Part shown: piece by piece, positions 4,093 to 64,000 of the stretch
Layout of the letters: each line of letters begins with the position of its first letter
Position numbering within the stretch: position 1 is the stretch's first letter
Origin: an uncultured Alphaproteobacteria bacterium
GTDB lineage: Bacteria; Pseudomonadota; Alphaproteobacteria; Rs-D84
NCBI GenBank assembly: GCA_934276735.1
Contig: CAKQTG010000001.1
Coordinates: 350,134-414,133, forward strand
Direction of reading: 5' to 3'
Length of the DNA stretch: 64,000 nucleotides
Position numbers and translations under genes: made by a program
Notes under the pieces: model-generated
What the model was told of the DNA's origin: nothing
What the model saw: only the letters and a program-made list of their open reading frames with translations
Database searches by the model: none

Positions 4093-4452
4093 ATGAAAAA
4101 AGTTTTGGTTTCTGTTTTGGCGTTGTCGGCATTGGCGGCGTGCAGCAGCTATGATTATTACAAGGGTGGCGTTCGCTATACCCAAGATGGCGAAGATTGC
4201 ATTTACACGATGGGTGAAAATGGCCATCATTTCAGCAACGATATTTATGATATGAACAACGGCAAAAAGATTGTTTATCGCAACACACGTTGTGCCGATT
4301 TGTATGCGCGTGACAACCTGGGTCAGGCACCACGTCACGATCGCCAGATTATTGTTCCGACCGCGCGCGAGGTTACAGACGCCCCGTCCTGTGGTTGCAA
4401 GACGTGCAATCAGCCTGTTCTGAAACGTCGTTATATAATTGTTTCTCAGTAA
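4093..4452 (+). CDS. Small lipoprotein, hypothetical
   Basis: The N-terminus MKKVLVSVLALSALAAC has a lipobox (L-A-A-C). 119 aa with 6 further Cys. RBS AAGGG; a terminator follows. Confidence 0.6.
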   Translation: MKKVLVSVLALSALAACSSYDYYKGGVRYTQDGEDCIYTMGENGHHFSNDIYDMNNGKKIVYRNTRCADLYARDNLGQAPRHDRQIIVPTAREVTDAPSCGCKTCNQPVLKRRYIIVSQ

Positions 4453-11591: not shown

Positions 11592-11603
11592 CTTAGAAAG
11601 GTA

Positions 11604-11633
11604 TTGACCCCGATTCGCAAAATATGATAAACT
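11604..11633 (+). promoter_or_regulatory. Candidate promoter of the fibre-protein cluster
   Basis: TTGACC, 18-nt spacer, TAAACT (preceded by TG), about 20 nt upstream of ATG 11654. Confidence 0.35.
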
Positions 11634-11653
11634 AGGTATCAGTAGAGAGAGTT

Positions 11654-13549: not shown

Positions 13550-13637
13550 AGGGAAAACACCAACACGGAATTTGGACCAACATCACCGCCATAACGGGAA
13601 ACGGGCCCAAGTAAAAAGGGAAAGAAAGGAAAGAACG

Positions 13638-14813: not shown

Positions 14814-14883
14814 GCGAACCAGTCAACCAAAGATTTAAACAAACAAAATAAAAACAATAAACAAAAAAAGAAAGGAAAAAAAC

Positions 14884-16113: not shown

Positions 16114-16202
16114 ATAAAAAATACTGTGTCGGGGGCGGGGGATTCCCCGACACAGGTTCAGGGATTGTGGTTAAAATATAAAAATAAAAAGGTTTTAGGG
16201 TT

Positions 16203-17645: not shown

Positions 17646-17699
17646 TGTTTGATTTTTGTGGTGCGGACGGATTTGTCTGTGCGCACCATGGAAATAGAC

Positions 17700-17728
17700 T
17701 TGTCACAATGTGACGAATTTGGTATCAT
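17700..17728 (+). promoter_or_regulatory. Candidate promoter of P5 with overlapping palindrome
   Basis: TTGTCA, 17-nt spacer, TATCAT. The -35 region lies within the inverted repeat TGTCACA-A-TGTGAC, a possible operator. Confidence 0.4.
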
Positions 17729-17763
17729 AGTTCAGAGAGATTAAATATACAGAATGTAGCGTT

Positions 17764-18531
17764 ATGAGATGTGTTAAAAGTATCTTTACCGTTTCGATTT
17801 TTGCCATGTTGATTGCAACCGGTGCGCGTGCGGAAATTGTGTCCAAGACACAACTTGATAGCACGATTGTTGCTGGCACAAATGTTACGATTGAAAAGCC
17901 AACATCGGGCACAAACAGTGGCAAAATTGTTATCAGTGCCACGGATACGAATACGACATATACCACCGGAACCGAGACTTATTCTGGGACAACAAAGTTG
18001 TATACCGCGACAGGCGATAGCACCGACGGAACAATGACCCGTGGCGCAATTACAACGGCGTTGAATGGTAAAGAAAACGTAACGAATAAGGTAACTAATG
18101 CATCTGGTTACACAGATGATATAACATCGTCAGATAAGTATCCGAGTATGGCAGTAGCGAATGATATGGTAAAGCAGGCGGTTAAATCGGTGAACGATGC
18201 AAAGCTGGATGAGGTTTTTGATAAATCACCGAACAATGTAATGGTAACCGATGCCGCCGGAGTTGTGAGTCCATCTGAGATTAAGACGAACGGTTCAGGT
18301 AATGCAGTTACTGGCATTGAGGTTAAGAATGGTGCATATACCCTGAACAAGGAGACAACGTTCGCGACCAAGGCACAGTTGGATGCCTTGGACAGCACGT
18401 CCACAGGCACGGGGGCGGTTGTGACGAATGTTACCCAGACAGATGGCAAGGTCACGGTGACCAAGGGAAATGTCCAGGTTCCAGTTGGATCATCAACGGC
18501 GACAACATATGCCGCGATTTGGATTGAATAA
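17764..18531 (+). CDS. Secreted fibre-like protein (fibre paralog P5, short)
   Basis: 255 aa. Signal peptide ...TGARA, then EIVSKTQLD. The central 107 aa are almost identical to P4 residues about 35-141. C-terminus: VQVPVGSSTATTYAAIWIE. Confidence 0.8.
   Translation: MRCVKSIFTVSIFAMLIATGARAEIVSKTQLDSTIVAGTNVTIEKPTSGTNSGKIVISATDTNTTYTTGTETYSGTTKLYTATGDSTDGTMTRGAITTALNGKENVTNKVTNASGYTDDITSSDKYPSMAVANDMVKQAVKSVNDAKLDEVFDKSPNNVMVTDAAGVVSPSEIKTNGSGNAVTGIEVKNGAYTLNKETTFATKAQLDALDSTSTGTGAVVTNVTQTDGKVTVTKGNVQVPVGSSTATTYAAIWIE
18061..18382 (+). repeat. 322-bp cassette shared between P4 and P5 (copy in P5)
   Basis: See 16305-16626. Confidence 0.9.
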
Positions 18532-22693: not shown

Positions 22694-23473
22694 ATGTTGT
22701 TCAAAACGATAAAATATTACCTGGCAACAAATGCAGAAATGCGTGCGGCGGATCGTGCGGCGTTTCGCGCATTGTGGAATGATATGCAGAAAAAACGCAT
22801 AAAACTGGAAGAGGTCAAGACCGAATTGTCGCATCGCGGTGGATGTGTGCATCGCTATTTGAAAAAGCCCGGTGGAATTTGGAGTGAAATATTGCCTGGC
22901 AAAATTGTAGAGAAGCATTGTGAGAGGTTTTGGATTTTTTCTTATAATGACGGATGTTTGGAAAAAACATGTATGTATTACCCCGAGTATGTAAAGTATC
23001 GCGATGTGTATCGTGAGTATGCCAAGGCCAAGGAAGATGTAAAAGCATTTTGGGAAGATAGAAAGGTATCACGTATCGAGGTCGCCAAGTATCCAAACAG
23101 TCCTGCAGCCCAGACAGCAATAGATACCCTGGACGCCCAATGTGCGGATTTGTATCGCGAACTTGAACAGGCCCGGCAGGCAATAACTTGTTATGAATTC
23201 GCTACGCCAGAGTGGGTGCTCCCACGGAAAAACGGCTGTTTTGTAGATGTGTCGTATAGTTCTAAATCATTTGACACCAGTGATGATTACCCGGGAATGA
23301 TATGGTCACGAATGGAACACTGTCCGGAATTTAGTGTGCCATGCACACGCGTCGATTGTTATTACAGGGCGCGAAATCAACACTATGCCAATGTTCGGGC
23401 GCAATACAGAAAGGCGTGCGAGGCATACAGATTGATGACGGAACGCGAGTGGAAACCATTAAATGAACGCTAA
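22694..23473 (+). CDS. Hypothetical Cys-containing protein, IKYYL-family paralog b (2 modules)
   Basis: 259 aa. N-terminus MLFKTIKYYLATNAEMRAADR. Modules: GGCVHRY...C-x11-C-x4-C-MYY...FW and NGCFVDVSY...C-x6-C-x4-C-YY...EW. RBS GGGGGA. Confidence 0.7.
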   Translation: MLFKTIKYYLATNAEMRAADRAAFRALWNDMQKKRIKLEEVKTELSHRGGCVHRYLKKPGGIWSEILPGKIVEKHCERFWIFSYNDGCLEKTCMYYPEYVKYRDVYREYAKAKEDVKAFWEDRKVSRIEVAKYPNSPAAQTAIDTLDAQCADLYRELEQARQAITCYEFATPEWVLPRKNGCFVDVSYSSKSFDTSDDYPGMIWSRMEHCPEFSVPCTRVDCYYRARNQHYANVRAQYRKACEAYRLMTEREWKPLNER

Positions 23474-23489
23474 GTTCAAGGGGGCGAAA

Positions 23490-24245
23490 ATGATGTTGAA
23501 AAGAATTAAATATTATTTGAATACGGATGCCACACAGCGTGCGCAAGATAGGGCGGATTTTAAACAGTTGGTCCATGATGCCAAGGAAAAAGAGGCGCGT
23601 GTAAAGGATATGGAACATGCGCTGGTATGCAGTGGCGAGCATATTGGGGCGACACGCGGAATATTTGATGATTTACTGGATAATACAGATACGCGTTGCG
23701 CGGCGTTCCAGCCAGAAATACAGGGGCCGTGCATGGATAAAGAATGTCCGTATCTGGGTGAAAATCATAAATATTTTGACGCGTTTCGTGCGTATGGGAC
23801 GGCCCTGGTCAGGGAAAAGGAATTCTGGCCAGAGCGTTGTGCGTTGCGTATTGCCCAGGCGGCGCGTGCCCGGCAAGAACGGAATACGGAAATTGCACAT
23901 TTAAATGCGCAATGCGCCGATTTGGAAAATGAATTGACGTTGGCGAAATCTGCGATATCGACACATGTGTGTATCAATCCAAACAGTGGCCCGCTGGTAA
24001 AAATGGGCTGCTTTGTGTCGGCGTATTATGGGGCTGGTGATTGGCCAATATTGGGCCTGGATGAACCATCGCACAGTTTTACTGTAAATGAAAAATGCAC
24101 AAAATTTGCGATGCCATGCGAACGCAATTGCCCATATCGCGAGAAAAATGCGCATTATGCCGATGTTTTAAATCGCTATGATGCGGCATGTGCGGCATAT
24201 CGTGCGATTGCTGGCAAGGATTGGATATCAACAAAAACAAAATAA
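23490..24245 (+). CDS. Hypothetical Cys-containing protein, IKYYL-family paralog c (2 modules)
   Basis: The track ORF 23463 is trimmed to ATG 23490 (RBS AAGGGGG). N-terminus MMLKRIKYYLNTDATQRAQDR. Modules: C-x10-C-x4-C-PY...FW and MGCFVSAYY...C-x6-C-x3-C-PY...DW. It shares L(D/N)AQCADL with paralog b. Confidence 0.7.
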   Translation: MMLKRIKYYLNTDATQRAQDRADFKQLVHDAKEKEARVKDMEHALVCSGEHIGATRGIFDDLLDNTDTRCAAFQPEIQGPCMDKECPYLGENHKYFDAFRAYGTALVREKEFWPERCALRIAQAARARQERNTEIAHLNAQCADLENELTLAKSAISTHVCINPNSGPLVKMGCFVSAYYGAGDWPILGLDEPSHSFTVNEKCTKFAMPCERNCPYREKNAHYADVLNRYDAACAAYRAIAGKDWISTKTK

Positions 24246-24261
24246 CAATTGGGGGACGATT

Positions 24262-24696
24262 ATGAATTTTTTTGCCAAAATAAAATATTATTTAACAACC
24301 AGTGCCGCCCAGCGCGCACAAAATAGTGCCGTGTTGGAAGACCTGGAACTGAAATGTTTCGAGACGGGGCGTGACATGGAACAGGCGCGCGAGGCGTTGC
24401 GTATCGTGGCCGATGGAATGTCCCAAACAGAAGTTTTAAGAAAGGCGTGTGTTGTATATCTGACGTATCCGAACAATATGTTGGGCGGAGATGACCTGAG
24501 CAGATATACACCCATGTTGGTAAGGGAGAATAATTGTCGGTATTTTGCCGAAGGCGACAAAAAATGTCCGCGCAAGGACTGTGCCTTTTATGAAAAAAAT
24601 ATCGCATATTTTGCGGCCAAGGACCGCTATGACGCCGCCGTTGCTGCACGTGATGCGTTTTTGGCACGTGCAACGGGGCGCGCTAAAAACAAATAA
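24262..24696 (+). CDS. Hypothetical Cys-containing protein, IKYYL-family paralog d (1 module)
   Basis: The track ORF 24178 is trimmed to ATG 24262 (RBS GGGGGA). N-terminus MNFFAKIKYYLTTSAAQRAQN. Module: KACVVYL...C-x9-C-x4-C-AFY...YFAAKDRY. Confidence 0.7.
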   Translation: MNFFAKIKYYLTTSAAQRAQNSAVLEDLELKCFETGRDMEQAREALRIVADGMSQTEVLRKACVVYLTYPNNMLGGDDLSRYTPMLVRENNCRYFAEGDKKCPRKDCAFYEKNIAYFAAKDRYDAAVAARDAFLARATGRAKNK

Positions 24697-24708
24697 AGGA
24701 TTAAATAA

Positions 24709-25101
24709 ATGAACATTAAAAAAATAAAATATTGGCTGAAAACGCCGGCTGGTGTTCGACGCCAGAACGCGGGCGAATATCGCACGCTGTGTATGAAATA
24801 TGGGGTTGCAAAAAATAAATATGCCCGTGCATTAAACCGGATTAGTGTTGATTTGGATTATTACGAAGATCCGGCCGACGTATCTGGTTGTGTAAAGTTT
24901 AAGATTCTGGAAAAGGTGCCGGGTGTTAAATACACAACAACACACACATGCCCGCACTTTATTCACGGTGTTTCGTGCAATCAACAGAATTGCCCGTTGC
25001 GCCCCGCGAATAATGAGTGCGCAAAATTGTACACTGTATGCGAATTGGCACTGAATAAAAAAGCAATATTTTGGGAAAATATATACAGTAAGGTAAGATA
25101 A
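24709..25101 (+). CDS. Hypothetical Cys-containing protein, IKYYL-family paralog e (1 module)
   Basis: 130 aa. N-terminus MNIKKIKYWLKTPAGVRRQN. Module: SGCVKFK...C-x8-C-x4-C-PL...IFWENIY. RBS AAAGGA. Confidence 0.7.
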   Translation: MNIKKIKYWLKTPAGVRRQNAGEYRTLCMKYGVAKNKYARALNRISVDLDYYEDPADVSGCVKFKILEKVPGVKYTTTHTCPHFIHGVSCNQQNCPLRPANNECAKLYTVCELALNKKAIFWENIYSKVR

Positions 25102-25102
25102 A

Positions 25103-25519
25103 ATGTTGATACAGAAGTTGAAATATTATTTAAAGACATCTGCGGCCCAGCGTGCGCATGACAGACGAGATTACCAGGCGGTCTTGAATCATTATGATGA
25201 TGCGTTGGCGGATTTGAAAGTGGCGCGCGATGCGATGACCGCGGTGGTTGACGACAAAGAAACGGCCGACGACACATGGGCGTGCGTTGTTGAATACACA
25301 TATCAATCGCCAATGGCGGGGGCAATTATGGGATTGCGTTCTGCACCACTGACAGCGCGCGAAGATTGTTGTTTCTTGAACGAAGAAGGTTGTTGTATTT
25401 TTAGTGGTTGCAAAAATCATGGTAAAAATGTGCGCTATTTTTACCAGAAAAAAATTTTGGATTTTTGGCGTCAAAAACGTGATACCTTTTGGGCCCAGAA
25501 ATACGCAAATGTAAAATAA
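25103..25519 (+). CDS. Hypothetical Cys-containing protein, IKYYL-family paralog f (1 module)
   Basis: 138 aa. The ATG is 1 nt after the stop of paralog e. N-terminus MLIQKLKYYLKTSAAQRAHDR. Module: WACVVEY...CC-x6-CC-x4-C...YFYQKKILDFW...FW. Confidence 0.7.
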   Translation: MLIQKLKYYLKTSAAQRAHDRRDYQAVLNHYDDALADLKVARDAMTAVVDDKETADDTWACVVEYTYQSPMAGAIMGLRSAPLTAREDCCFLNEEGCCIFSGCKNHGKNVRYFYQKKILDFWRQKRDTFWAQKYANVK

Positions 25520-28513: not shown

Positions 28514-28538
28514 AAAACGCCCGAACGGGCGTTTTTTA
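28512..28538. terminator. Bidirectional terminator
   Basis: AAAAAACGCCC-GAA-CGGGCGTTTTTT. An identical sequence recurs at 29784-29809. Confidence 0.75.
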
Positions 28539-29546
28539 TTTGTTCAGTTCAGAACGTAATTTTTCCAATTTTTGCAACGCGTCGCATGCGTCTGCCTCGT
28601 GGGGTTCTGTGCCATATATATAGTGTTTGATGTTTGTATAATCCCAATTTGGCGTGATGCACAGTGCCTGTTCCTGGGTCAGTGTTACGTAATTATGCGT
28701 AATTTCGCGTCCGTCACGGTCGGCGACTTGCTTTTGTGCGATGTCAACGGCTATACCGCCATCTTCGGAAACGACGATAATGCTGTTTATGCGACGGGCA
28801 CAGATTTTATGTTGTTCCAGTTTAATTGTCTGGGTGCATGCGCCAGCGAAACTCGATGCACTGGGGTCCCGGGCCACATATATATTCTCTGATGGCAGAT
28901 ATCCGACAACAATACCATTGGTGCCCAAATAATCCACGGTATCAAAGCCTTCTCTGTCGGTAACAGCGGATATTGTTTGTGGTGCCGATATGCCATTGTC
29001 CATGCATATTATGTTGCTATCATTTGGACATTTAACCAGTGTTATATATTCGTATGCGGCGTTACGAAAGTTCGGGCAACTTAGATAAATTTCTTGCCCG
29101 TTATCGCATTTTTTCATTGCCGTGTCACAATTGTTCGTAATGTCACCGGCACGACGGACAGGAACGCCGTCTTTGAAATCTGCGGGGACAAATGTTGTTG
29201 TGTAATTATACCTTGGGCCGCCTGAATTCGTAATATATTTAAAAAGCACAATTTTATTTTCGGTGTCATATATTCCATGGATTGTAAATGTTTGGTCATC
29301 GTATGTGCAATCCCATGCTAATTCTGGTTGAATTGCATCATTGTTGTCATCCATTATCCCCCGGGGAACTAATTTTATATCCTGGCCGTGTATGGTCGCG
29401 ATAACATTATCAACATCATATATGCGCAGTGTGATTGGTCCGGTCAAGTCCCCCAACGCAGCCTCGGGCCGCAGCACCGTTGTGGCGATTGGGCGGTCGC
29501 ACGCGGCCAGTATCAGTGCAAACAGCACGGTAAGTATTTTTTTCAT
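28536..29546 (-). CDS. Cys-rich lipoprotein, hypothetical
   Basis: The track ORF is trimmed to ATG 29546 (RBS GGGGGA). MKKILTVLFALILAAC has a lipobox. 336 aa, with no recognisable family. Confidence 0.6.
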   Translation of the reverse strand: MKKILTVLFALILAACDRPIATTVLRPEAALGDLTGPITLRIYDVDNVIATIHGQDIKLVPRGIMDDNNDAIQPELAWDCTYDDQTFTIHGIYDTENKIVLFKYITNSGGPRYNYTTTFVPADFKDGVPVRRAGDITNNCDTAMKKCDNGQEIYLSCPNFRNAAYEYITLVKCPNDSNIICMDNGISAPQTISAVTDREGFDTVDYLGTNGIVVGYLPSENIYVARDPSASSFAGACTQTIKLEQHKICARRINSIIVVSEDGGIAVDIAQKQVADRDGREITHNYVTLTQEQALCITPNWDYTNIKHYIYGTEPHEADACDALQKLEKLRSELNK

Positions 29547-29783
29547 TTGTGTTCCCCCTTGGTTATATAAACAAAATGCCACCAAAAAAATTGGTGGGTT
29601 GGAGTTTAAGCACAATCAGAAAGGATTGCGTGTCTTATTCAATATATTCGACACACCCCAACCCCAATCAATTGGGTTGGCGATTTTTTTCGTCATCACT
29701 GACGCTTTCTGATGGGTGCTTAAACCCAGTGCGGCAACACGCCACACGTGCGAATTATATCATAATGGATTTTTGTCGCCAAT

Positions 29784-52594: not shown

Positions 52595-52954
52595 TTAATA
52601 TTCAATCACGCGGCGGGTGGTGTGCGTGCCGACGGGGACATATTGCACAACGGGTTGATATTCTTGGTAATGGTCTATGACCTCGGTATATTTTTTTACG
52701 CGAACCGGGCGCAGTGCCGCGCCAGTGTTGCAATTACGTGCGCGTGACGCCAGGTCAATAGATGAACGAACGCGACAAGGTGCGGCAATGTGTGCCGGTT
52801 TTGATTTGGGAATGTATGCGTCGTCTGAAATTTCAACAGTGCTTATTTGAATTGATTCATACGTTGTTTCGGTTGTTGTTTCGCGACACGGACATGCGTA
52901 TGCGCCGGCCATCAATGACGCAGTCAGCAAACAAAATACAGCAATTTTTTTCAT
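52595..52954 (-). CDS. Small secreted Cys-containing protein, hypothetical (antisense to the ribosomal operon)
   Basis: 119 aa with signal peptide MKKIAVFCLLTASLMAGAYA. It has its own terminator (52570-52596) and an upstream AAGGA RBS. Confidence 0.55.
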   Translation of the reverse strand: MKKIAVFCLLTASLMAGAYACPCRETTTETTYESIQISTVEISDDAYIPKSKPAHIAAPCRVRSSIDLASRARNCNTGAALRPVRVKKYTEVIDHYQEYQPVVQYVPVGTHTTRRVIEY

Positions 52955-54969: not shown

Positions 54970-55719
54970 TTATCGGGTGCGCTGGAATACATGCATGCGG
55001 TCAAAACAGGTTTTGCGCTCTGTCTTTTCATGCTGTAATACTTCACCTGTTTTTAATTCGATTTTGAAATTTTCGTAACTGATGTTTGATGATTGTGGCA
55101 TTGAAATAATGCGACCGCCAAGCATCAGGCATTTGGTCAACCGCGCCAAAATATCAATCTGGTCGCGTCGTTCATAGCCATAATCAAATATGTTTGATAT
55201 GTCGATTAAATCGTATTTTTTTATTGCGCGCAGGTTTAATTCCGTGATGTCGCAGTTAAAGAATTCAAACGGCCCGCGGATGATTTGTTGCAGGTGTTTG
55301 TATTCGTCGTCTGTGAATTGATTTTGCGGATATGCGTCGACCGATGTGCCACGACTGAAATTGATAACGCCAATGCGGCTGCGCATTAAATCGATTGTTT
55401 GCGGGCGCAGGCGCGGGGTCACAGGGTCCATACTGACCATATTCAGTGCGTTCGTGCTGTAACGCAATTCGCGCAATAATTGATAGTATTCGTCGCGTGG
55501 CATAATCGGGATTGCGGCGGTTTTGATTTCTTGGATAATGCCGGCGCATTTTGTGATGTCGTATGTGTCAACGGTTTTTGCCCCGCCCAGGCGGTATGTC
55601 AGGGCCTGGTCGCCACTGCCGGCGACGGTCAGGACGTGTTGTGCGCCCTGGGTTATTTTGCGTGCCCAACGCCAGTCTTCGTTTGTAATCGTGTATGCGG
55701 GAATATAGAATTTTTCCAT
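54970..55719 (-). CDS. DUF3419-like SAM-dependent methyltransferase-fold protein (putative)
   Basis: The track ORF is trimmed to MEKFYIP... (RBS AAGGAA). TNEDWRWA...VLTVAGSGDQALTYRLGGAKTVDTYDITKCAGIIQEIKTAAI and ...YDLIDISNIFDY resemble, from memory, the DUF3419/BtaA-like signature. Confidence 0.45.
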   Translation of the reverse strand: MEKFYIPAYTITNEDWRWARKITQGAQHVLTVAGSGDQALTYRLGGAKTVDTYDITKCAGIIQEIKTAAIPIMPRDEYYQLLRELRYSTNALNMVSMDPVTPRLRPQTIDLMRSRIGVINFSRGTSVDAYPQNQFTDDEYKHLQQIIRGPFEFFNCDITELNLRAIKKYDLIDISNIFDYGYERRDQIDILARLTKCLMLGGRIISMPQSSNISYENFKIELKTGEVLQHEKTERKTCFDRMHVFQRTR

Positions 55720-55869: not shown

Positions 55870-58812
55870 ATGAGAAAGTTTGCAATTTTTTCAATGTTGG
55901 TTGCCGGTTTCTTTACCGCGGCAAATGCCGCCGTCCCGGTTCAACGTCGTGGTCAAAATGCTGCAAATTCCGGTGCGTCTGGCGCATCGGCCGCGCGCAG
56001 TGCAACCACATCGCCGCGTGGTGTGACCAATTCATCGGGCACGTTGACCGCGCGCAGCGCGACATCGGGTCGCACGACCGTATCGCGCAGTGCAACAACC
56101 CAGCCCACAACCCAGGGCGTCGTTGCGCGTGCCGGCACCACACAAAAAGTTATTGGCACCGGGACCAAGGTCGCGTCGGCCGCCAAAAACATTGTCGTCA
56201 GCGAGGCATGCCAACAGAAATACGACGGTTGTATGGATTCATTCTGTATGATTGATAACGCCAGTGGCGGTCGTTGCCTGTGCAGTGACCGAAACGCCGA
56301 ATTGGATTCTGTCCTGGCCGAGATAGAGAAGTTAGACCAGCAATCATATCAAATGGCAACCACCGGCGTTGAACGCATTGAAATGGGTGCCGATGCCGAC
56401 GCGGCAATGGCGACAGCAAATGCGGTGGCGGCCGACCTGCGTGGGGACAATGACAAGAAAAGTGCGCGTAAGTCGTTGGATTTAACGATGTGGAATTCGA
56501 CGGTTGATTTTGATGGCGATGATGACGTGTGGGCAGATGAGAGCACTAATGTGATAGAGGGTAAAACCGGTGACGCATTGTATCGCGTGTCGCACCAGAT
56601 TTGCGTGGCACAAATCCCAGAATGCGCCGGTGAAATGTCCATGTTGCAAATGATGTATTCCCAGCGGATAAAGTCTGATTGCGCCGCGTATGAGAACAGT
56701 TTAAAGCAACAGAAAAACGCCAGTGCAAATAAATTGTCGGCCGCGGAAAAGGCCCTGCGCGAGGCGGCGTTGGAACAATATCGCACGGCAAACAAATATG
56801 ATCTGGGGCAATGCACGGTTGAATTTAAAAACTGTATGATTTCGACCGGTGGTTGTGGCGATGATTTTTCGAAATGCGCATCGGTTGTGGCATCTGATAA
56901 CACCAACGTCAGAAAAAGCCGTCGCAGCAAAAACACAACATATGCGATTACTGGCGCGACAACGACGATTGAAATTTCAACATCAACGTATGACACGCTG
57001 GTTGCAAAGAAGCCCCTATGTGAAACCGTAACTAAACAGTGTGTAGCGGTTGCGGACCAGGTCTGGGATACTTTTTTGCGCGAGGTCGCACCTCAAATCA
57101 AATCTGCTGAACTTATTGCAGAAGACAATGCCAGACAATCTTGTATTTCTTCTATTTCAGATTGTTTCCAAAAGGCTTGTAAAGACACCATGGATCCTAA
57201 TGATCCCGATGGTTCTTATGACATGTGCTTGACCCGGCCGGAAACCATGCTCAATCTGTGCAAGATTCCACTGAACGCATGTGGTATTGATGCTTCTTCT
57301 GCCGCCAAGGCCGCAGAGTCACAGATTTGGGATTTCGTGGTCGCCAGATTGGCATCTATGCGCGTCGATGCCTGCACCAAGGAAGTCAAGTCTTGTCTGC
57401 AATCTGATGACCGCTGTGGCAAGGATTATGCTCAATGTGTAGGATTGGATACTGACACGATTATTCGTATGTGTCCATATGACAAGTTGGTTGGCTGTCA
57501 AAAAGTTTATGGCGAGAGTGAGGTTCGTGGTGACGCGGTGTATGAACAGTTGGCTGATATGGTCCAGGGTATCATGTTAAATATTGATAACAACATGCTG
57601 ACCCAGTGTCAAAATGCCGCCAATGCCGCAATGATAAAGGTCTGTGGTGATACCGAAAATTGCAACGGTTTGACCACTGACGACAATATTGGCGCGCGTT
57701 CATTAGAATACAAGATTTGCGAATATTCCAATTCAAGCGATTCGTTGGATATAAATTATTCCAAATGTCGCACGGATGTATCCCAGATTCTGGATTCTGA
57801 ATTGGGACGCGTCGAAGGTTCGACCAGCACCGAATTGGGACCGGTTACCCCGTTCGCGGGCGTATTGGATGGAACAATATATTGGGAAAGTGTTGACATT
57901 GACGAAGATGGCAAAGTATCAAGCGTTGATGATTATTTAAACAAAATTGATGGTGGTTCTATGTCTGCCGCCCAAAAGGAAAAGGTAAAATCTGAATTGG
58001 CGGTGTTACAGAAAAACATTGATGTTGCAATCGGCGCAATAGAGGCCGATCCAACAGTGCAATACTGTATGACCGGACGCGAGGTCCAGGGTATGAAGCG
58101 CAATGGTCGCGAGGTTCGCGATCGTCTTGGCAGCAAGTCCGCAGATGCCGTGCGTTTCCCAGGACTGACCAAGCAAATGCGTATGATTATCGCAACGCAT
58201 GCGCTGAAAGTTGCCAAGGATAATTATTATGCAAAATATGACAAATTAAATACCCAAATGTTGAAAGATTATGCGACGTTGGGTGAACGTATGGCGGAAA
58301 TCCAGGGTAAAAATGCATTGGATGCGCGTCGTGAAATTGCGCGCGAGGCATGTGTAACATTTGCAGAAGCCTCGTCGTTACCGAAATCACCAAATCCACC
58401 CAAGAGTGCGTTTGGCAAAATACTGGCGGCAACGGCAATTGTTGGCGCAGCGGTCGCGATACCGTTCACTGGTGGTGCATCAGCGGCCGTGGTCGCAATG
58501 GGACTCTCTTCATCTGGCCTGGCTGTTGCTGGTGCAGGTGTTGCAGTAGCTGGCATAGGTTTAGCCGGCAATATAGGCGGTGGAGCTAACGGCGAGGACG
58601 GTGGTGCACAGCGTCAATTGATTGGGTCCAAGCAATTGAACCAGTGGAATTACAAGGAAACAATTACATCCACATTTGAATGGGAAACACTGAATTGCCA
58701 TAAATGCGTTCGTGCACAAAAATGTGGCAAAACAGGCAGTCCGCTGTTCGGTAGTAAATATTGTAAATCTTGGGAAGAACCCAAAGAAACATGCAATGAT
58801 ACACAATTCTAA
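55870..58812 (+). CDS. Giant Cys-rich secreted/membrane-anchored protein, hypothetical
   Basis: 980 aa. It has signal peptide ...FTAANA and a Ser/Thr/Arg low-complexity stretch (ARSATTSPRG...ARSATSGRTTVSRSATT). Dozens of Cys follow in paired C-x(2-8)-C arrangements through a mostly helical-looking body. A Gly/Ala-rich hydrophobic segment (ILAATAIVGAAVAIPFTGGASAAVVAMGLSSSGLAVAGAGVAVAGIGLAGNIGGG) precedes a Cys-rich tail ending in ...CNDTQF. Confidence 0.75.
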   Translation: MRKFAIFSMLVAGFFTAANAAVPVQRRGQNAANSGASGASAARSATTSPRGVTNSSGTLTARSATSGRTTVSRSATTQPTTQGVVARAGTTQKVIGTGTKVASAAKNIVVSEACQQKYDGCMDSFCMIDNASGGRCLCSDRNAELDSVLAEIEKLDQQSYQMATTGVERIEMGADADAAMATANAVAADLRGDNDKKSARKSLDLTMWNSTVDFDGDDDVWADESTNVIEGKTGDALYRVSHQICVAQIPECAGEMSMLQMMYSQRIKSDCAAYENSLKQQKNASANKLSAAEKALREAALEQYRTANKYDLGQCTVEFKNCMISTGGCGDDFSKCASVVASDNTNVRKSRRSKNTTYAITGATTTIEISTSTYDTLVAKKPLCETVTKQCVAVADQVWDTFLREVAPQIKSAELIAEDNARQSCISSISDCFQKACKDTMDPNDPDGSYDMCLTRPETMLNLCKIPLNACGIDASSAAKAAESQIWDFVVARLASMRVDACTKEVKSCLQSDDRCGKDYAQCVGLDTDTIIRMCPYDKLVGCQKVYGESEVRGDAVYEQLADMVQGIMLNIDNNMLTQCQNAANAAMIKVCGDTENCNGLTTDDNIGARSLEYKICEYSNSSDSLDINYSKCRTDVSQILDSELGRVEGSTSTELGPVTPFAGVLDGTIYWESVDIDEDGKVSSVDDYLNKIDGGSMSAAQKEKVKSELAVLQKNIDVAIGAIEADPTVQYCMTGREVQGMKRNGREVRDRLGSKSADAVRFPGLTKQMRMIIATHALKVAKDNYYAKYDKLNTQMLKDYATLGERMAEIQGKNALDARREIAREACVTFAEASSLPKSPNPPKSAFGKILAATAIVGAAVAIPFTGGASAAVVAMGLSSSGLAVAGAGVAVAGIGLAGNIGGGANGEDGGAQRQLIGSKQLNQWNYKETITSTFEWETLNCHKCVRAQKCGKTGSPLFGSKYCKSWEEPKETCNDTQF

Positions 58813-58839
58813 AAAACGCCCATTCGGGCGTTTTTTTTT
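58811..58839. terminator. Bidirectional terminator between convergent genes
   Basis: AAAAAACGCCC-ATT-CGGGCGTTTTTTTTT; it overlaps both stop codons. Confidence 0.75.
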
Positions 58840-59899
58840 ATATCAAAACATCCAGGTCGTTTGTGATCACGACGCCGGCTTTTTCCCAGTCTGCGCGGCG
58901 GGCGTCGATGTTCATGATATTATCACATGTCATATATAATACTGGCACGACGCCCCGTGCGGCGGCAACACGGGTTGCGGCGACGACGGGCGATGGCTTT
59001 TGCCGGCCGGTTGCGAACCATGTGTCGCCATCGGCAACCCAGAAACTGGGGTCGTCATGTGTTGCGATTGCGTATTTGTCGGTGACGACTACGTCATCGT
59101 CGGTCGCAATAATCGGCATGTTGTGCGCGCCCAGAAAATCGGTTACCGTCGGTGCGCCGCTTGTATGGGTTGCGTCCACTGTGTTGGGCGTCGTGTCCGC
59201 CGTGGCCGGCACATCGTCGTGTGGAATTTCAACCGCAGTGTCGTCGTCAAATCCATCAAATTTTATTTCATGAAATACCGGGGCAGGGGTGTCGGAAATA
59301 TCGTGCCCAGTTGCGGCGTCAGGCGAAAAATCGTCAAACGTGCCAATATCGTCAAAGTCCGTGGGCAGTGGCAAATCGCCCGCGATATCTGTGGTTGGTT
59401 TTTGTGATGTTGTAATTTGTGATGCGACATTGTCCATCGCGCGCATGTCAAATGATGAAATCTGTTCGGTCCCAACGCGCCCGCGTGCGCGCAGGAACGC
59501 CCCACGCAGTTCCAGGGGCAGGCTGTCTGGTAATGGTTTCGCGGCCGGGGTGTCGTCCGCGGGTGCGGGTGTGTCGTCGGCGGGTGCATCGGCGGCGGCG
59601 GGCGGTGCAAACGCGCGCTTTAAAAATTTGGGAATTGGTATCGTGAACAGTGGTGCACCGCTGCGCGCGACCAATGTGGTTGTTGCGATATACATCGGCA
59701 CCGCGGCCAGAATTAAAATTCCAAACACAAAACCGGCGAACCCGCGCAGGTGTGCGTGTGCCAAATATGACCAGTGCAGCGATGAAAACATATTGAAATT
59801 AAACAGACCGCGCAAAATCGCCCACATTATGAACACATATGTGATTGTCCATGTGATTATGTGCCGGCGAGATTTGATAAAGTCTGTAACTTTTTGCAT
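58838..59899 (-). CDS. Membrane protein with acidic disordered linker, hypothetical
   Basis: 353 aa. Two N-terminal TM helices, then a Pro/Ala/Asp/Thr-rich region (APADDTPAPADDTPAAKP...), then a globular C-terminal domain (...SFWVADGDTWFATG...VLYMTCDN...). Confidence 0.65.
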   Translation of the reverse strand: MQKVTDFIKSRRHIITWTITYVFIMWAILRGLFNFNMFSSLHWSYLAHAHLRGFAGFVFGILILAAVPMYIATTTLVARSGAPLFTIPIPKFLKRAFAPPAAADAPADDTPAPADDTPAAKPLPDSLPLELRGAFLRARGRVGTEQISSFDMRAMDNVASQITTSQKPTTDIAGDLPLPTDFDDIGTFDDFSPDAATGHDISDTPAPVFHEIKFDGFDDDTAVEIPHDDVPATADTTPNTVDATHTSGAPTVTDFLGAHNMPIIATDDDVVVTDKYAIATHDDPSFWVADGDTWFATGRQKPSPVVAATRVAAARGVVPVLYMTCDNIMNIDARRADWEKAGVVITNDLDVLI

Positions 59900-60025
59900 G
59901 CGATTATTATAGACAATATATTATTTTTGTCAAGATTATAATCAAACGGTATTTTTGTCTAAAAAGGGCTTTTTTTTAGGTCTTTTTTATGGCATAATAA
60001 TGGGGATAAAAGTAGGAGATTTTTT

Positions 60026-62167
60026 ATGCAGAATTTGCTGAAAATGTTTGGTGTATCGGGCGCGCTGTTGGGGCTGGTTGCCACGGTTTCTGGGGCGGAC
60101 GCCGCCACAGGACGTGCGGCATACTCGAATATTCGTACGTCTGTAAATGCAAATACCGCGATTGGTCGTATGCCGTCGATGCCGACATTGCCGATAAATT
60201 CTGTGGGAAATTTGTCGCCAGATTTGCCGTCTGATGGTGGCACAACGCCCGATAATCCCAAGCCCGATGATCCAAAGCCGGACGATCCGAAACCAGATGA
60301 CCCCAAACCGGAATGCCCAGATGGTGGTGTTAAAAATTCAACGTATACAGTTGAAAACTGTATGACGGATATTCTGTCGTGTGTCAACGGTGGCGCGTTA
60401 CCGGGCGGTCTGAACGATTTGTTTAACGAAGATTTGCGTAACGCAATCGTCAACGGTATGGGATTGTGCACGGTCCAGGTGGAAAAGTGTATCGCAACCG
60501 TTCGTCGCAATTGCAGAAATGTTTATCGCACATCGGCCGACGTGTGGTTGGATTTCAATTCCCGCCGGATTCAGCCGGAATATTACAACTTTGTTTTGCG
60601 CAAAACGGGTCTGACCCCGAACCAGGCGGAAAACACATGCCGTTTGTTGGACAAGAACACATATGGCACATCGTTTAATGCGGTCGCCAATAATGGCGGT
60701 GTGACATCAGAATACAATAAACGCACCGGTGCGTATAACAGTCAACAGGGCAATGTCTTGGTCAAAAATAATCCCCAGGGTGTCCAGGTGAACGATAATA
60801 ACCCCGGCGTTGATGGCCAGCGTGGCCACTATGCGCGTTGGGACGCAACAACGGCGGATTGCTGGATTCGTGTTGCCGCGTATAACAAAGACAGCCAGAT
60901 TAAAAACAGCTGGTTGTTCGGTGCCGCCGGTGACGACAAAATGGCCGAAGCCTGGAAACAGGCTGGTGACACATTTACGTGTAACAAGGACCTGTTTGGA
61001 TTTTCATTGATGAACCAAACTAGCACGGCCGCGGTTGTCGGTATTGGTGGTGGAACATTGGTTGGTGCTGGTATCGGTGCAATTGCCGGACATGGTGCGC
61101 GCAATTTTGATTGCAGTAATGATGGCCAGGTGAAAAAACTGGGTGAACAGTTAAAGGCGTCGGGCAAGATTGCAATCTTGAACGAATATCTGGACGCGAG
61201 TAATCGTATCAGCAATAATTTCACAACATTGTCGCGGGCCCAGTGCGAGGATATCGTTGACCTGGCAGCATTGTATCCACAGTTGAGCTCGGCATTGTCG
61301 GATTGCGAAAGTATCAGCAACGTTTCGACATTGAATACGTGGACATTGACGCTCCATTGGGTGTCGACAGAACAGGAGAAAGCTCAAAACGCCCAAGCTA
61401 TAATGGAAAGCGTTTTCCCAAAGTGTAAAGGCATGACATTGCAACAGTGTGGCAACCTGTTGGCAAACCAGTGCCAGATGGGAACAAGTGACTGTATTGA
61501 ACAGTTAAAGACCGAAGGATATATTGATGGCGATTATGCACAGAACTTTACCCTTGATGTTAAAAGCAAGGAAGAACTGATTGGCAAGTGCACGTTCAAA
61601 CCGATAAACATTGCTAAAAGAAACGGTGAAATGATTTATTGCCAGAATCCAGAAGGCCAGGGTTGTCAAACCGCCACGGATCTTAGCTCTGATGTCAGAC
61701 GGCTGGGCGGGGCGTTGGATGATTTGGAAATCCTGAACGGTGAAAAATCCAATATGGCGAAAAGTATCGGTATCGGTGCAGCGGCGGGTGCTGGCACGGG
61801 TGGATTGGCCACGGCGATTACGGCATTTGTCGAACGCAGTAACATCAACTGTCGCGTTGGCGATGGTCTGGAACAGGTCGGATTCGGAAAATCGTATTCA
61901 ATTGGCACGCTGAAAGATTTCTATGTGAAATGGAATCTGCACCTGCCGGATACAATTGCGCCGACGGCAAATGTAACTGATTGCACGACATGGCGGGCGG
62001 CATGTGGAACGCTGACTGATTTGAAACAGTGCGCTGCGGCCCAAGTAAATTACCGGCCGGCCGACGCCCCAACAATCAGATTGATTCAGGCGGCGTGCAC
62101 CCCATCGGGCAGTGTGTGTATCGAAAACTATCCGGTTGCGGTATCATACGGCGCGTGCCAAGAGTAA
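60026..62167 (+). CDS. Large Cys-rich secreted/membrane protein, hypothetical
   Basis: 713 aa with RBS AGGAG and signal peptide ...VSGADA. A (PDDPK)x4 linker precedes a Cys-rich body (ENCMTDILSCVNGG...LCTVQVEKCIATVRRNC...). Two Gly/Ala-rich hydrophobic segments are present (AAVVGIGGGTLVGAGIGAIAG and SIGIGAAAGAGTGGLATAITAFV). Confidence 0.75.
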   Translation: MQNLLKMFGVSGALLGLVATVSGADAATGRAAYSNIRTSVNANTAIGRMPSMPTLPINSVGNLSPDLPSDGGTTPDNPKPDDPKPDDPKPDDPKPECPDGGVKNSTYTVENCMTDILSCVNGGALPGGLNDLFNEDLRNAIVNGMGLCTVQVEKCIATVRRNCRNVYRTSADVWLDFNSRRIQPEYYNFVLRKTGLTPNQAENTCRLLDKNTYGTSFNAVANNGGVTSEYNKRTGAYNSQQGNVLVKNNPQGVQVNDNNPGVDGQRGHYARWDATTADCWIRVAAYNKDSQIKNSWLFGAAGDDKMAEAWKQAGDTFTCNKDLFGFSLMNQTSTAAVVGIGGGTLVGAGIGAIAGHGARNFDCSNDGQVKKLGEQLKASGKIAILNEYLDASNRISNNFTTLSRAQCEDIVDLAALYPQLSSALSDCESISNVSTLNTWTLTLHWVSTEQEKAQNAQAIMESVFPKCKGMTLQQCGNLLANQCQMGTSDCIEQLKTEGYIDGDYAQNFTLDVKSKEELIGKCTFKPINIAKRNGEMIYCQNPEGQGCQTATDLSSDVRRLGGALDDLEILNGEKSNMAKSIGIGAAAGAGTGGLATAITAFVERSNINCRVGDGLEQVGFGKSYSIGTLKDFYVKWNLHLPDTIAPTANVTDCTTWRAACGTLTDLKQCAAAQVNYRPADAPTIRLIQAACTPSGSVCIENYPVAVSYGACQE

Positions 62168-62194: not shown

Positions 62195-62223
62195 AAACGA
62201 ACCGCCCCACCGGGCGGTTTTTT
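62195..62223 (+). terminator. Rho-independent terminator after the 713-aa gene
   Basis: AACCGCCC-CACC-GGGCGGTTTTTT. Confidence 0.7.
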
Positions 62224-62224
62224 A

Positions 62225-63240
62225 TTAGAGAGCAACGCGCAGAGAGCAGAGAGCAATGAAAGTTCCCCTCCTGTGGAGGGGTGTCCGCCAGGACAGGGTG
62301 GTCTTGAGAATCCGTAATGTTGTAAAAAAAAGACCACCTCCCCGCTACGCGGGACTCCTCCACAGGAGGAGAACTTGCCACGCAACGGAAACGAAATAAA
62401 GTTCCCCTCTGGCCAGAGGAGGGGTGGCACGAAGTGCCGGGGTGTCGTATTCTTAGAGAGCAGAGTGTAGAGAGCAATGTTTGTGCTCGCGTTCGCTCGC
62501 AACACCACAGACCTGGATCCTGTGGTCAAGCCACAGGATGACGCCTATGAGAAAAAACGCGACGCAAATATGAACAATGTTCAGAAAATAAAATCTATAT
62601 CCAGCCTTCGTCATTCTGGGGCTTGACCCCAGAATCCAGGTGGATAGACTTGCGCGTATGCGCACCTTATGTGTCGCCTGCGGACTGCGTCCTTGCCGTA
62701 TCCTGCGCTTCGCTTGGATTCATTCCGGCCTACGCCGGTTGACGGTTCCCCATGGATTGCCGCGCTTCGCTCGCAATGACAAGGGGTGCGTGTCCTACGG
62801 TATGAAAATTCCCCTTCGCTGGCGAAGGGGTGGACGCCCCGGGCGGACGGGGTAGTGGTATTGTATGTCCCTGCGGGGCAATGGACCCCGGCCTGCGCCG
62901 GGGTGACGAGTATTTTGTAATTGGAAGCTTGTTTCTACGAATATTGTTCAAATTTAGGTGTGGTATTATTTTTAAGTCGTCATACCGGCGACGGCCGGTA
63001 TCCATTGCGTTCCCTTGGCATGTCGCAATTTGGTAATTAGTCACCAATAACAAAAAACGCACATGTTTGGACATGGCTCGCGTCCGCTCGCACTGTATAG
63101 TCCCTATTCCGGCCTGCGCAGGAATGACAAGGTCTTGGGAAAGGTCTGGGGTTTGTGCCATATTTTACGTGTATTGTGCACCGATGAAATACGAGAAAAT
63201 TTAAAATGGGGGCTGGCAATAATACTATCAGATAGTTGTG
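62225..63240. repeat. About 1 kb repeat-only tract of nested palindromic mosaic elements (families A-D and others)
   Basis: It begins with TTAGAGAGCAACGCGCAGAGAGCAGAGAGCAATG, the exact reverse complement of 7298-7331. It also contains GTTCCCCTC..GAGGGG hairpins, a second AGAGAGCA block at about 62455-62478, CGCTCGCAATGAC units, a 48-nt unit at 62811-62858, CCCAGAATCC / CCGGCCTGCGCCGGGGTGACG-type units and hairpins such as GGGGCTTGACCCC. The track ORFs here translate into known-looking junk peptides (RFARNDK, VIASEARQS, PAQAGI). Confidence 0.85.
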
Positions 63241-63274: not shown

Positions 63275-64000
63275 CTAGGTATTGCTGATAAAGTCTGCTT
63301 CCCAGTAATACCATGACGCGCGTGTTGCGCCATAGCTGGTGCAACCACGGTTTACGTATGGGTATTTACTCTGTGCGGCGGCAGTTATTACACCATGATA
63401 ATTCCCAGGCGATACTGTTTCGGCACAGTCGTTATCATCTGTAACATAAAAATCAGGTTGAAAACACCGTGCGTAAAAACGAATTTTCTTTCTCTCTGTT
63501 TGGGTAACTGCGTAATAGCCACGCGTTGCCTGGGATAATTTTAGATAGCCATTTTCGGATTTGCATAATTCAAACATGGCTGCCAATTGTGATTCTTCGG
63601 TGGCGGTCAGATCGGTTGGATAATATTTGCTTTCGATACCGTTGGCGATAAGTGTTTGATTTCGTTCCTGGGATGTGATTTTTGTTTTCAGGTCACTGGA
63701 ATTTGTAACTGCAACAGCGGCGACATTTGTCGCCGCCGTGATATTTTGGTCGCTTGTTTGTTGTGTTGCAGTAATGCCGGCATTGTTTAACAACTGTTGC
63801 GCGGTATTTTGTATTGAACCTGCATTTGTGCCTGTGCCATCGCAGGTGCCTGCGGTAATTGTTACCTTGACGTGACGACATGTTTGATCGTTGGGTTGTG
63901 GGTGTCTGGTTGTGTCGCATTCCGTGTCGGCTTTTCCTGTTGATTCGAAGCTGGGAGCACCCTGGGTGAAAACTTGTTTTAATATTCCCGTAACCGCGTC
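63275..64000 (-). CDS. Hypothetical Thr/Cys-containing protein, 3' part (5' end beyond window)
   Basis: The track starts it at TTG 63793. My hand translation shows the frame stays open upstream to nt 64000 (…DAVTGILKQVFTQGAPSFESTGKADTECDTTRHPQPNDQTCRHVKVTITAGTCDGTGTNAGSIQNTAQQ-LLNNAG…). The gene therefore probably continues beyond the window. Confidence 0.55.
   Translation of the reverse strand, partial: DAVTGILKQVFTQGAPSFESTGKADTECDTTRHPQPNDQTCRHVKVTITAGTCDGTGTNAGSIQNTAQQLLNNAGITATQQTSDQNITAATNVAAVAVTNSSDLKTKITSQERNQTLIANGIESKYYPTDLTATEESQLAAMFELCKSENGYLKLSQATRGYYAVTQTERKKIRFYARCFQPDFYVTDDNDCAETVSPGNYHGVITAAAQSKYPYVNRGCTSYGATRASWYYWEADFISNT

Follow-up and report, generated by a model that had tools for sequence, protein, structure and literature searches.

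The DNA analyzed here is a stretch of 64,000 nucleotides (the window, to which all coordinates below refer unless stated otherwise) from an uncultured alphaproteobacterium of the GTDB lineage Rs-D84 (GenBank assembly GCA_934276735.1, contig CAKQTG010000001.1, positions 350,134 to 414,133 of the forward strand). Towards its end lie the genes of two large Cys-rich proteins, A980 and C713, separated by a gene encoding a membrane protein, B353. These three open reading frames (ORFs) had been singled out in a preliminary description made from the sequence alone, and their coordinates were recovered exactly. Comparative analysis indicates that they belong to an envelope gene island which is specific to the lineage, conserved within it, and made up of six to seven genes. 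The features recognized within and around the three genes are as follows.

55870-58812, + strand: A980, a protein of 980 amino acids (aa) exported by the Sec pathway, as judged from its signal peptide; 38 Cys.
55870-55929, + strand: A980 signal peptide, residues 1-20 (MRKFAIFSMLVAGFFTAANA, then AVP), with predicted cleavage between ANA and AV; the N-terminal pattern is kept in homologues.
55930-56196, + strand: A980 N-terminal Arg/Ser/Thr/Ala-rich tether, residues 21-109; VPxQRRG followed by ARSAT-type repeats (ARSAT/SRSAT, three times).
56782-56901, + strand: A980 Cys motif, copy 1, residues 305-344 (CTVEFKNCMISTGGCGDDFSKC); motif hidden Markov model (HMM) E=2e-18.
57343-57462, + strand: A980 Cys motif, copy 2, residues 492-531 (CTKEVKSCLQSDDRCGKDYAQC); found by hhalign and the motif HMM.
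58405-58578, + strand: A980 Gly/Ala-rich hydrophobic segment, residues 846-903; Kyte-Doolittle value >1.8; variable insertion.
58615-58809, + strand: A980 predicted C-terminal beta domain, residues 916-980; AlphaFold2 strands with a predicted local distance difference test (pLDDT) score of 58-72; Cys 943, 946, 952, 965 and 975.
58811-58836, both strands: predicted bidirectional intrinsic terminator between the convergent genes of A980 and B353; 11-bp stem with an A-tract on one side and a T-tract on the other.
58838-59899, - strand: B353, a membrane protein with two hydrophobic segments and 1 Cys.
59906-59933, - strand: predicted sigma-70-type promoter of B353 (TTGACA, 16-nt spacer, TATAAT), recognized solely by its 12/12 match to the consensus; located in the 126-bp region between the genes of B353 and C713.
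60026-62167, + strand: C713, a protein of 713 aa exported by the Sec pathway, as judged from its signal peptide; 26 Cys.
60251-60313, + strand: C713 Pro-rich PDDPK linker, residues 76-96 (DNPKPDDPKPDDPKPDDPKPE); the Pro-rich character is kept in homologues.
61028-61090, + strand: first Gly-rich stretch of C713 (glycine zipper 1), residues 335-355; its G-x3-G ladder hardly varies among family members.
61766-61831, + strand: second Gly-rich stretch of C713, residues 581-602; it hardly varies either.
62199-62220, + strand: predicted intrinsic terminator after C713 (a sequence feature).

By these sequence features, A980, B353 and C713 would constitute separate transcription units. Their placement downstream of rplQ in the preliminary description holds in part, with one qualification: a minus-strand methyltransferase-like gene (54970-55719) lies between rplQ and A980.

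The signal peptides of both large proteins, also noticed before, were assigned by eye from the sequence. Each carries an AxA cleavage site (in C713 the sequence is ...LVATVSGADA followed by ATG, with cleavage between ADA and AT), and neither contains a lipobox Cys. Low-complexity linkers follow both signal peptides, as had been described, with ARSAT-type repeats in A980 (pLDDT <30 in the AlphaFold2 model) and PDDPK repeats in C713. The PDDPK units differ synonymously at the DNA level (ccc/cca/ccg, aag/aaa, gat/gac) and Tandem Repeats Finder gave matches of only 78-81%, in agreement with the earlier remark that the codons vary from unit to unit. A common theme is apparent just after the signal peptide in A980, C713 and two other proteins discussed below, F519 and a collagen-repeat protein (11654-13549). 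It consists of short Arg-containing motifs (VPxQRRG, ARSAT, SARMPTL, GRMPSMPTLP and SVRSLGG) within an S/T/A/G-rich tract, and it may act as a common tether or sorting element.

The layout of B353 also conforms to the preliminary description. Two hydrophobic segments (residues 14-33 and 46-79) are followed by an acidic Pro/Asp/Thr linker, in which three short motifs are conserved (ELRxAFxRAR, LPLPTDFD and PVFxxIxFD), and by a conserved C-terminal domain of approximately 100 aa (58841-59152); the spacing between the B353 and C713 genes is 126 bp, as given there.

No domain family had been recognized in these proteins at the outset, and the database searches gave the same answer. A980, B353 and C713 had no family match in Pfam, NCBIfam or PHROGs, a Pfam scan of nine distant members of the A980 (A) family identified no domain, and neither phmmer nor profile searches returned a PDB sequence. 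Foldseek comparison with the PDB returned nothing credible (best E=0.12 and 1.4, with tiny TM-scores, treated as noise). No description of the proteins was found in the literature on Enterousia, Rs-D84 and CX6C/periplasm. Homologues are nevertheless abundant: at 90% identity the homologues of A980 fall into >1000 clusters, those of C713 into 759 and those of B353 into 204, each either lacking a name or annotated as "hypothetical protein", and a HMMER search for A980 relatives yielded 755 representatives at 50% identity (252 at E<=1e-30). A relationship between the two large proteins themselves was considered and rejected (BLASTP E=0.7; hhalign 2.7%; motif-level comparison <3%). On the basis of these comparisons, we regard it as established that the proteins represent two or more new families and contain one new Cys-motif domain.

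The GTDB species genomes in which relatives of A980 were found bear the labels Candidatus Enterousia, uncultured Alphaproteobacteria or uncultured Rickettsiales, and originate from the guts of humans, ruminants, horses, chickens and mice. The distant relatives that were sampled come from alphaproteobacterial metagenome-assembled genomes, and the exact A980 sequence is present on human-gut contigs, including those from Hadza samples. Three loci with the island (L014, L072 and L075) are filed under "Bacteroides fragilis" or "uncultured Muribaculaceae" bins and are probably mis-binned; rpoA is 85-99% identical in the L014 and L075 contigs.

That the ORFs might be annotation artefacts, or decaying or unexpressed genes, is hardly conceivable. 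Full-length intact homologues occur in the >1000 (A980) and 759 (C713) clusters and in dozens of species, the Cys residues are invariant, the genes have their own predicted promoters and terminators, and conservation lies well above that of neighbouring non-essential genes, which effectively refutes such an explanation.

The proposal that A980 and C713 are disulfide-rich extracytoplasmic proteins gains most from the behaviour of their Cys residues. The numbers of Cys in A980 (38) and C713 (26) are both even, a point that the preliminary description had asked to be checked, and B353 has a single one. In A980 the spacing C-x6-C occurs 11 times compared with 1.6 expected (approximately 7-fold; 0 of 5000 shuffled sequences reached 11), and in C713 5 times compared with 0.95 expected (12 of 5000 reached 5); the same spacing is enriched in F519 and G285. 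All 38 Cys of A980 are invariant across 45 sequences with a mean column identity of 66%, and 22 of the 26 Cys of C713 are invariant or nearly so in homologues. In a 109-member A-family alignment, reaching down to approximately 30% identity, most Cys columns are retained in >95% of the sequences.

Where Cys residues are missing from this alignment, they are lost in matched pairs: 425-471 (5/5), 437-453 (9/9), 509-535 (5/5) and 592-598 (2/2), with near-complete coincidence for 617-633 (40/45) and 946-975 (72/74), although certain of these paired losses may be one evolutionary event inherited by several sequences. The number of Cys after the signal peptide is even in 99 of the 109 sequences. The C713 family behaves alike, with even counts in 152 of 158 sequences and the co-lost pairs 427-522, 539-547 and 467-475. 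Since the Cys are invariant, their counts even and their losses paired, A980 and C713 are very likely disulfide-bonded. The pair 437-453 is nested within the pair 425-471, which suggests a ladder stapling an antiparallel hairpin, with C432-C464 as its possible middle rung. Taken together, the co-variation data would provide a testable disulfide map for both proteins.

A different role of the Cys residues, as metal ligands or redox-active thiols (a metal store, an Fe-S/Zn scaffold or a thiol buffer), is very improbable. It would suit a host that is an anaerobe without a respiratory chain, in which periplasmic oxidation may be weak, and the four-Cys clusters C-x6-C-x4-6-C-x6-C superficially resemble metal-binding motifs. 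The Cys are, however, lost in twos and never in threes or fours, often across motifs and 16-46 positions apart (e.g. 509-535 and 425-471), which points to disulfides rather than tetrahedral metal sites; metal clusters were judged unlikely on these grounds. Moreover, even Cys counts are found in 91-96% of homologues, there is no apparent pattern of His, Asp or Met co-ligands (His makes up 0.3% of A980), and no metal-binding family was matched.

AlphaFold2 models, computed from alignments of 45 and 50 sequences, are of low confidence. In that of A980 alpha-helices prevail, the longest of them spanning 71 residues (764-834), next to a small beta unit at approximately 612-668 and a C-terminal beta domain (916-979), whereas C713 appears as mixed alpha/beta; neither the N-terminal linkers nor the Gly-rich segments have modelled structure. 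The Cys motifs quoted in the preliminary description were found at the places given there. The only internal repeat detected in A980 (28 aa) is a Cys motif, delimited as a 28-40-aa unit at residues 305-344 and 492-531 (hhalign of one copy against the other: 94.9%, E=5e-8). Its consensus is C-x6-C-[MIL]-x4-5-C-G-x-D-[FY]-x-x-C. The motif HMM detected it only in A980, F519, G285 and their homologues (163 ORFs).

The Gly/Ala-rich hydrophobic stretches were likewise located where they had been reported (A980 846-903; C713 335-355 and 581-602). The segment of A980 occupies a variable linker between the long helix bearing Cys828 and the conserved C-terminal beta domain. Its length among close relatives ranges from approximately 58 aa (in the window) to approximately 25 aa (in P0120), and no more than 21 of the 101 distant representatives of full length possess a hydrophobic segment at this position; judged from this distribution, it is a subfamily-specific insertion and not a family constant. 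Of the 38 Cys, 33 precede the segment and 5 follow it, and 946 and 975 pair together. Because 33 and 5 are both odd, one disulfide should bridge the segment: it would start from Cys 943, 952 or 965, and its partner in the N-terminal part would plausibly be Cys828. In that case the disulfide would close the hydrophobic stretch into a loop, both ends of which lie in one compartment.

The region between the two Gly-rich segments of C713 comprises 226 residues and contains 10 Cys, including co-varying pairs, so that all three parts of C713 appear to lie in an oxidising compartment. The segments are better read as oligomerisation elements, re-entrant segments or glycine-zipper hairpins than as two ordinary inner-membrane spans. 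Thus, of the earlier suggestion that the Gly-rich stretches are transmembrane segments or glycine zippers, the zipper part agrees with the G-x3-G ladder present in C713, whereas Cys parity favours hairpins or re-entrant segments over a single membrane crossing.

The C-terminal domain of A980 includes the co-varying pair 946-975 and ends in a conserved ...D(T/I)Q(F/M). Cys 733, 828, 943, 952 and 965 are retained in >90% of the 109 homologues, and a polymorphic toxin with a variable C-terminus was rejected on account of the retained C-terminal Cys. A trimeric-autotransporter anchor or beta-barrel was discarded as well (no Pfam match; the domain has 65 aa, is polar and contains 5 Cys, and only its terminal aromatic/hydrophobic residue is conserved).

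The conservation of gene order, which the preliminary description had named as a refuting test, was examined in a set of 77 species loci, and co-occurrence was counted in 49 loci that span 15 kb or more. Wherever a locus holds both B353 and C713, these two genes are neighbours and diverge from each other, and A980 usually adjoins B353/C713 and rplQ. The linkage is kept despite shuffled order and orientation (B-C-A, A...C-B, or rpoA-rplQ inserted between A and B), and 39 of the 49 loci contain A as well as B and C. The gene linkage is therefore conserved in relatives; what did not survive is the delimitation of a three-gene unit, since the island extends to six to seven genes (MT295, A980, B353, C713, E989, F519 and G285). 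All six genes lie within approximately 20 kb in 13 of the 49 loci, with changed order and orientation, and F519 and G285 are adjacent and co-oriented wherever both were seen. In the majority of Enterousia genomes, E989, F519 and G285 keep their linkage to A980, B353 and C713. The further members, some of them read from a longer contig of the same genome (L078) that extends past the end of the window, are the following.

54970-55719, - strand: MT295, a putative cytoplasmic class-I methyltransferase-like protein with a DUF3419 match (PF11899, E=1.3e-11, N-terminal part only); divergent from A980.
63275-64000, - strand: the last 241 residues of E989, whose reading frame extends past the window end; it continues, with F519 and G285, at 17406-22817 of L078.
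Upstream of E989, outside the window, same strand as E989: F519, a Cys-rich protein of 519 aa, predicted to be secreted from its signal peptide; its N-terminus reads VPRG...SARMPTLT, the Cys motif is present twice, and there are also a glycine zipper and an acidic tail.
Upstream of E989, outside the window, same strand as E989: G285, a Cys-rich protein of 285 aa, predicted to be secreted, with 20 Cys and one copy of the Cys motif.

MT295 (249 aa as called in L078; S-adenosylmethionine-binding (SAM) motif VLTVAGSGDQ) adjoins A980, or B353 in rearranged genomes, and thus travels with the island. The start of G285 (C-x7-C-x4-C...C-x2-C) resembles residues 114-138 of A980. At full length E989 has 989 aa and starts with a signal peptide. 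It further contains a CarboxypepD_reg-like domain (E=6e-13), a region rich in Cys, segments rich in Gly and a predicted OmpA/MotB-like domain for binding peptidoglycan. The Pfam OmpA match (E=5.5e-6) reached 27.1 bits, just short of the cutoff of 27.2. Sixteen NCBIfam models matched, 15 of them over the OmpA-like region (approximately residues 665-800) and all under their full-length cutoffs, among them TssL-OmpA (6.8e-12), YiaD glycine-zipper/OmpA (4.7e-8) and MotB (2.5e-7). These matches most likely reflect a real domain inside a novel architecture. The C-terminal part of E989 alone gave no BLAST match in the 77 loci, whereas the full-length protein did.

The island occupies approximately 12 kb in a genome of approximately 0.75-1.0 Mb (about 1.4%). 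Median identities to other species are 94% for rpoA, 91% for SecY, 57% for A980, 56% for C713, 38% for B353 and 35% for MT295; by these values, purifying selection on the island is moderate. A phage or defence origin was rejected (no PHROGs match for six island proteins; chromosomal location beside the ribosomal operon in all species).

Additional copies of the A980 gene were observed in some relatives. Tandem duplicates occur in L021 (9926-16120), L031 (9983-15855) and L032 (9998-15829), and distant paralogues of 750-1000 aa with 29-42 Cys, sharing only residues ~110-600, in L016, L017, L021, L029 and L009 (in L016, L017 and L029 they are located at 14-21 kb of those loci).

The invariant divergent pairing of B353 and C713 also bears on another explanation, namely an inner-membrane-anchored periplasmic trans-envelope machinery built with B353 (for biogenesis, division or tethering), with a layout like that of Tol-Pal/TonB, in which C713, and A980 of this subfamily, would be anchored by their Gly-rich helices. 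We regard such a machinery as unlikely. The predicted promoter 5′ of B353 is a strong consensus one, the glycine-rich segments of C713 are nearly invariant, E989 is an OmpA/MotB-like neighbour, and the N-terminal anchor, long Pro-rich linker and conserved C-terminal domain of B353 resemble the layout of TonB/TolA. In addition, one of the 36 aligned B353-family members subjected to a Pfam scan, none of which was assigned to a family, matched the TonB polyproline region (E=0.0035). These similarities are opposed by the lack of TonB_C, TolA and MotA/ExbB-like domains and by the 10 Cys with co-varying pairs between the C713 segments, which argue that this region is not cytoplasmic and that the segments are not both ordinary spans; the positive-inside rule, too, slightly favours a cytoplasmic C-terminal domain of B353. 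A TonB/TolA-like transducer was rejected for B353, given that no TonB_C/TolA domain was found in the 36 members and no ExbB/TolQ-like gene in the island.

The data are best accommodated by a lineage-specific envelope assembly of disulfide-stapled, largely helical proteins, with E989 as the tie to the cell wall and B353 as the partner of C713. This reading, to which we assign a probability of roughly 0.45, builds on export signals, Cys pairing by co-variation, gene linkage and the OmpA-like domain, in proteins without known homologues; membrane association (including the membrane concerned), complex formation and a structural role are what we infer. The folds of A980 and C713 would be held by many intramolecular disulfides, many of them joining helices with Cys at positions i and i+7. 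According to this model, (i) the island proteins would be exported and oxidatively folded, (ii) glycine-zipper or Gly/Ala-rich hairpins would hold them at a membrane, with both flanks in the same oxidising compartment, (iii) the OmpA-like domain of E989 would tie the assembly to peptidoglycan, and (iv) B353 would be the inner-membrane partner of C713. The outcome would be a proteinaceous envelope scaffold or coat.

What is known of the host is relevant here. We assign the source of the window to Candidatus Enterousia. Enterousia belongs to the order Rs-D84, has genomes of 0.75-1.0 Mb, and lacks amino acid, nucleotide and lipid biosynthesis as well as standard transporters; it is presumed to be an obligate symbiont or parasite, has no cultured member and, with Rs-D84, is widespread in the guts of humans, ruminants, birds and termites (PMC12306168). 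It retains MreB, RodA and PBP2 (PMC12306168), and therefore presumably has a peptidoglycan wall.

Several observations weigh against the envelope assembly. Enterousia is reported to lack respiratory chains (PMC12306168), which puts the usual DsbB-quinone route of oxidation in doubt; DsbA, DsbB and VKOR were not found in the window and the 77 loci, a scope (~1.3 Mb of neighbourhoods, one per genome) that is uninformative on this point. Since the hydrophobic segment is missing from most distant members, membrane anchoring would not be a core property of the A family. The topology of B353 is ambiguous, and its C-terminal domain could be cytoplasmic or periplasmic. Physical interaction among the island proteins is suggested by linkage alone, and in several genomes (e.g. 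L016, L017, L021 and L062) A980 occurs without B and C within 10 kb. Finally, the confidence of the AlphaFold2 models is low (A980: pLDDT 56.6 and predicted template modelling score (pTM) 0.37; C713: pLDDT 57.8 and pTM 0.36), with no fold assignment.

The metabolic gaps of Enterousia fit a further explanation, in which the proteins would form a partner-contact or feeding device, combining surface adhesion with a membrane-inserting apparatus that draws metabolites from a partner cell. The glycine-zipper or Gly/Ala-rich loops would insert into the partner membrane, as in glycine-zipper toxins and alpha-pore-forming toxins. Such a device is possible, if on balance doubtful. Uptake via cell-cell connections has been proposed for Enterousia, with many hypothetical membrane proteins (PMC12306168). 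The hydrophobic loop of A980 differs in length and content between species and subfamilies and is adjoined by long helices in the predicted model, and the A family shows paralogue expansion and tandem duplication (L021, L031, L032, L016 and L017); residues 849-881 also gave a weak compositional match to the glycine-zipper effector Ssp4 of a type VI secretion system (T6SS; E=0.81). On the other hand, there was no significant toxin or adhesin match, A980 (57%) and C713 (56%) are fairly conserved with no clear hypervariable domain and with their C-terminal Cys kept, the neighbour predicted to bind peptidoglycan suggests an internal location in the envelope, and no outer-membrane secretion system was seen in the island. 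Membership of the alpha-pore-forming toxins (ClyA/Hbl/Nhe/Smh) was rejected: the Foldseek match to SmhA (7a26), obtained with the low-confidence model, has E=2.0, a probability of 0.02 and TM-scores of 0.04-0.09.

A bolder reading would make the island a new disulfide-laddered envelope organelle of Rs-D84, serving as an interface for attachment and metabolite uptake on a partner cell, and built from a new family of C-x6-C helical-staple domains together with glycine-zipper membrane hairpins. We consider this organelle distinctly unlikely.

Other parts of the window contain further Cys-rich or secreted proteins. On the opposite strand between rpsK and rpoA, within a conserved ribosomal row, lies a gene (52595-52954, - strand) encoding a 119-aa secreted protein with 5 Cys. 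Conservation of this protein extends to 17 related loci, at a median identity of 48%, and no family was matched. Five tandem paralogous ORFs (22694-25519, + strand; 259, 260, 172, 130 and 138 aa) share an IKYYLxTxAxQRAxDR N-terminus; in the four that were counted Cys amounts to 4-5%, and none of the five has a signal peptide or a convincing Pfam match. They apparently represent a second, unrelated Cys-rich family, predicted to be cytoplasmic. A row of six secreted proteins (10875-18531, + strand) includes an outer-membrane beta-barrel and the 631-aa protein with collagen triple-helix repeats mentioned above (Pfam E=4e-18), whose N-terminus is R/S/G-rich like those of A980 and C713; the other four have no family match, and two of them share the near-identical segment TALNGKENVTNKVTNASGYTDDITS-DKYPSMA. 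The proteins of this row may form surface fibres. Two predicted lipoproteins are also Cys-rich (28536-29615, - strand, 13 Cys in 359 aa; 4093-4452, + strand, 6 Cys in 119 aa). These lipoproteins suggest that the organism's exported proteins are rich in disulfides as a general trait.

The C713 gene is followed by a repeat-rich non-coding spacer of approximately 1 kb (62222-63160) with GC-rich palindromes and short direct repeats (AAGTTCCCCTCCTGTGGAGGGGT and an inverted copy; CCGGCCTGCGCCGG, three times), which look like repetitive extragenic palindromic (REP)-type elements. A 143-aa gene call in this spacer (62730-63161) is probably spurious.

Large conserved proteins without a family take up approximately 1.4% of a genome of less than 1 Mb, which raises the question of what kind of envelope or contact structure the bacteria make. 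How an anaerobe without a respiratory chain would oxidise approximately 60 or more pairs of Cys is a puzzle for every reading. The new Cys-motif domain could be added to Pfam and serve to trace the family, and if the function is only structural, the result is a well-documented new protein family.

Four known systems invite comparison with the envelope assembly proposed here. The Chlamydia proteins OmcB and OmcA are Cys-rich components of a disulfide cross-linked outer membrane complex, in which disulfides are held to stabilise the envelope mechanically. A980 and C713 resemble them in being predicted Sec-exported proteins with approximately 4% Cys, encoded side by side in a host-dependent Gram-negative bacterium with a reduced genome. 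They show no sequence or profile similarity to them (no match to the Chlam_OMP6/OmcB families in Pfam or NCBIfam at E<=1; PDB-profile searches were empty), and they possess predicted helical C-x6-C ladders and glycine zippers that are not known from OmcB. The context differs as well, in that Enterousia presumably has a peptidoglycan wall (MreB, RodA, PBP2; PMC12306168).

The glycine-zipper outer-membrane lipoproteins SlyB/Pcp and the Rickettsia 17-kDa antigen, and the glycine-zipper/OmpA-like lipoproteins of the YiaD type, contain G-x3-G ladders in short hydrophobic segments, a likely membrane or oligomerisation element comparable to that of the island proteins. E989 is similar to YiaD in joining Gly-rich segments with an OmpA-like domain (a weak match, E=4.7e-8, of 33 bits against a cutoff of 175). 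Unlike SlyB/Pcp and YiaD, A980 and C713 lack a lipobox, are 5-10 times larger and carry their zippers between large Cys-rich domains; no glycine-zipper HMM matched either protein significantly (best DUF1269, E=0.86, C713 343-379).

In the twin CX3C/CX9C (CHCH) proteins of the mitochondrial intermembrane space, a helix bears Cys at fixed spacing along one side, and these staple it to an antiparallel partner in an oxidising compartment; the nested A980 pairs 437-453/425-471 would fit such a ladder. In place of x3 or x9, the interval here is x6, the pair 509-535 leaves the motif, and the proteins are very large, multi-domain and bacterial. The likeness is one of principle and not of homology.

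The Helicobacter Hcp proteins are secreted proteins of Sel1-like repeats in which regularly spaced Cys pairs staple the helices. A980 and C713 are likewise predicted to be secreted and helical with regular Cys pairs, and come from a gut-associated proteobacterium. A980 differs from Hcp in having no Sel1/SLR (Sel1-like repeat) match in Pfam and no regular repeat of approximately 36 aa, and membership of A980 and C713 in this group was rejected for want of a Sel1 repeat match. All four comparisons concern shared principles and assign the proteins to no family. The protein families of the island are thus new, while the principles on which they appear to rely, i.e. disulfide stabilisation, glycine-zipper anchoring and OmpA-type tethering to the wall, are familiar.

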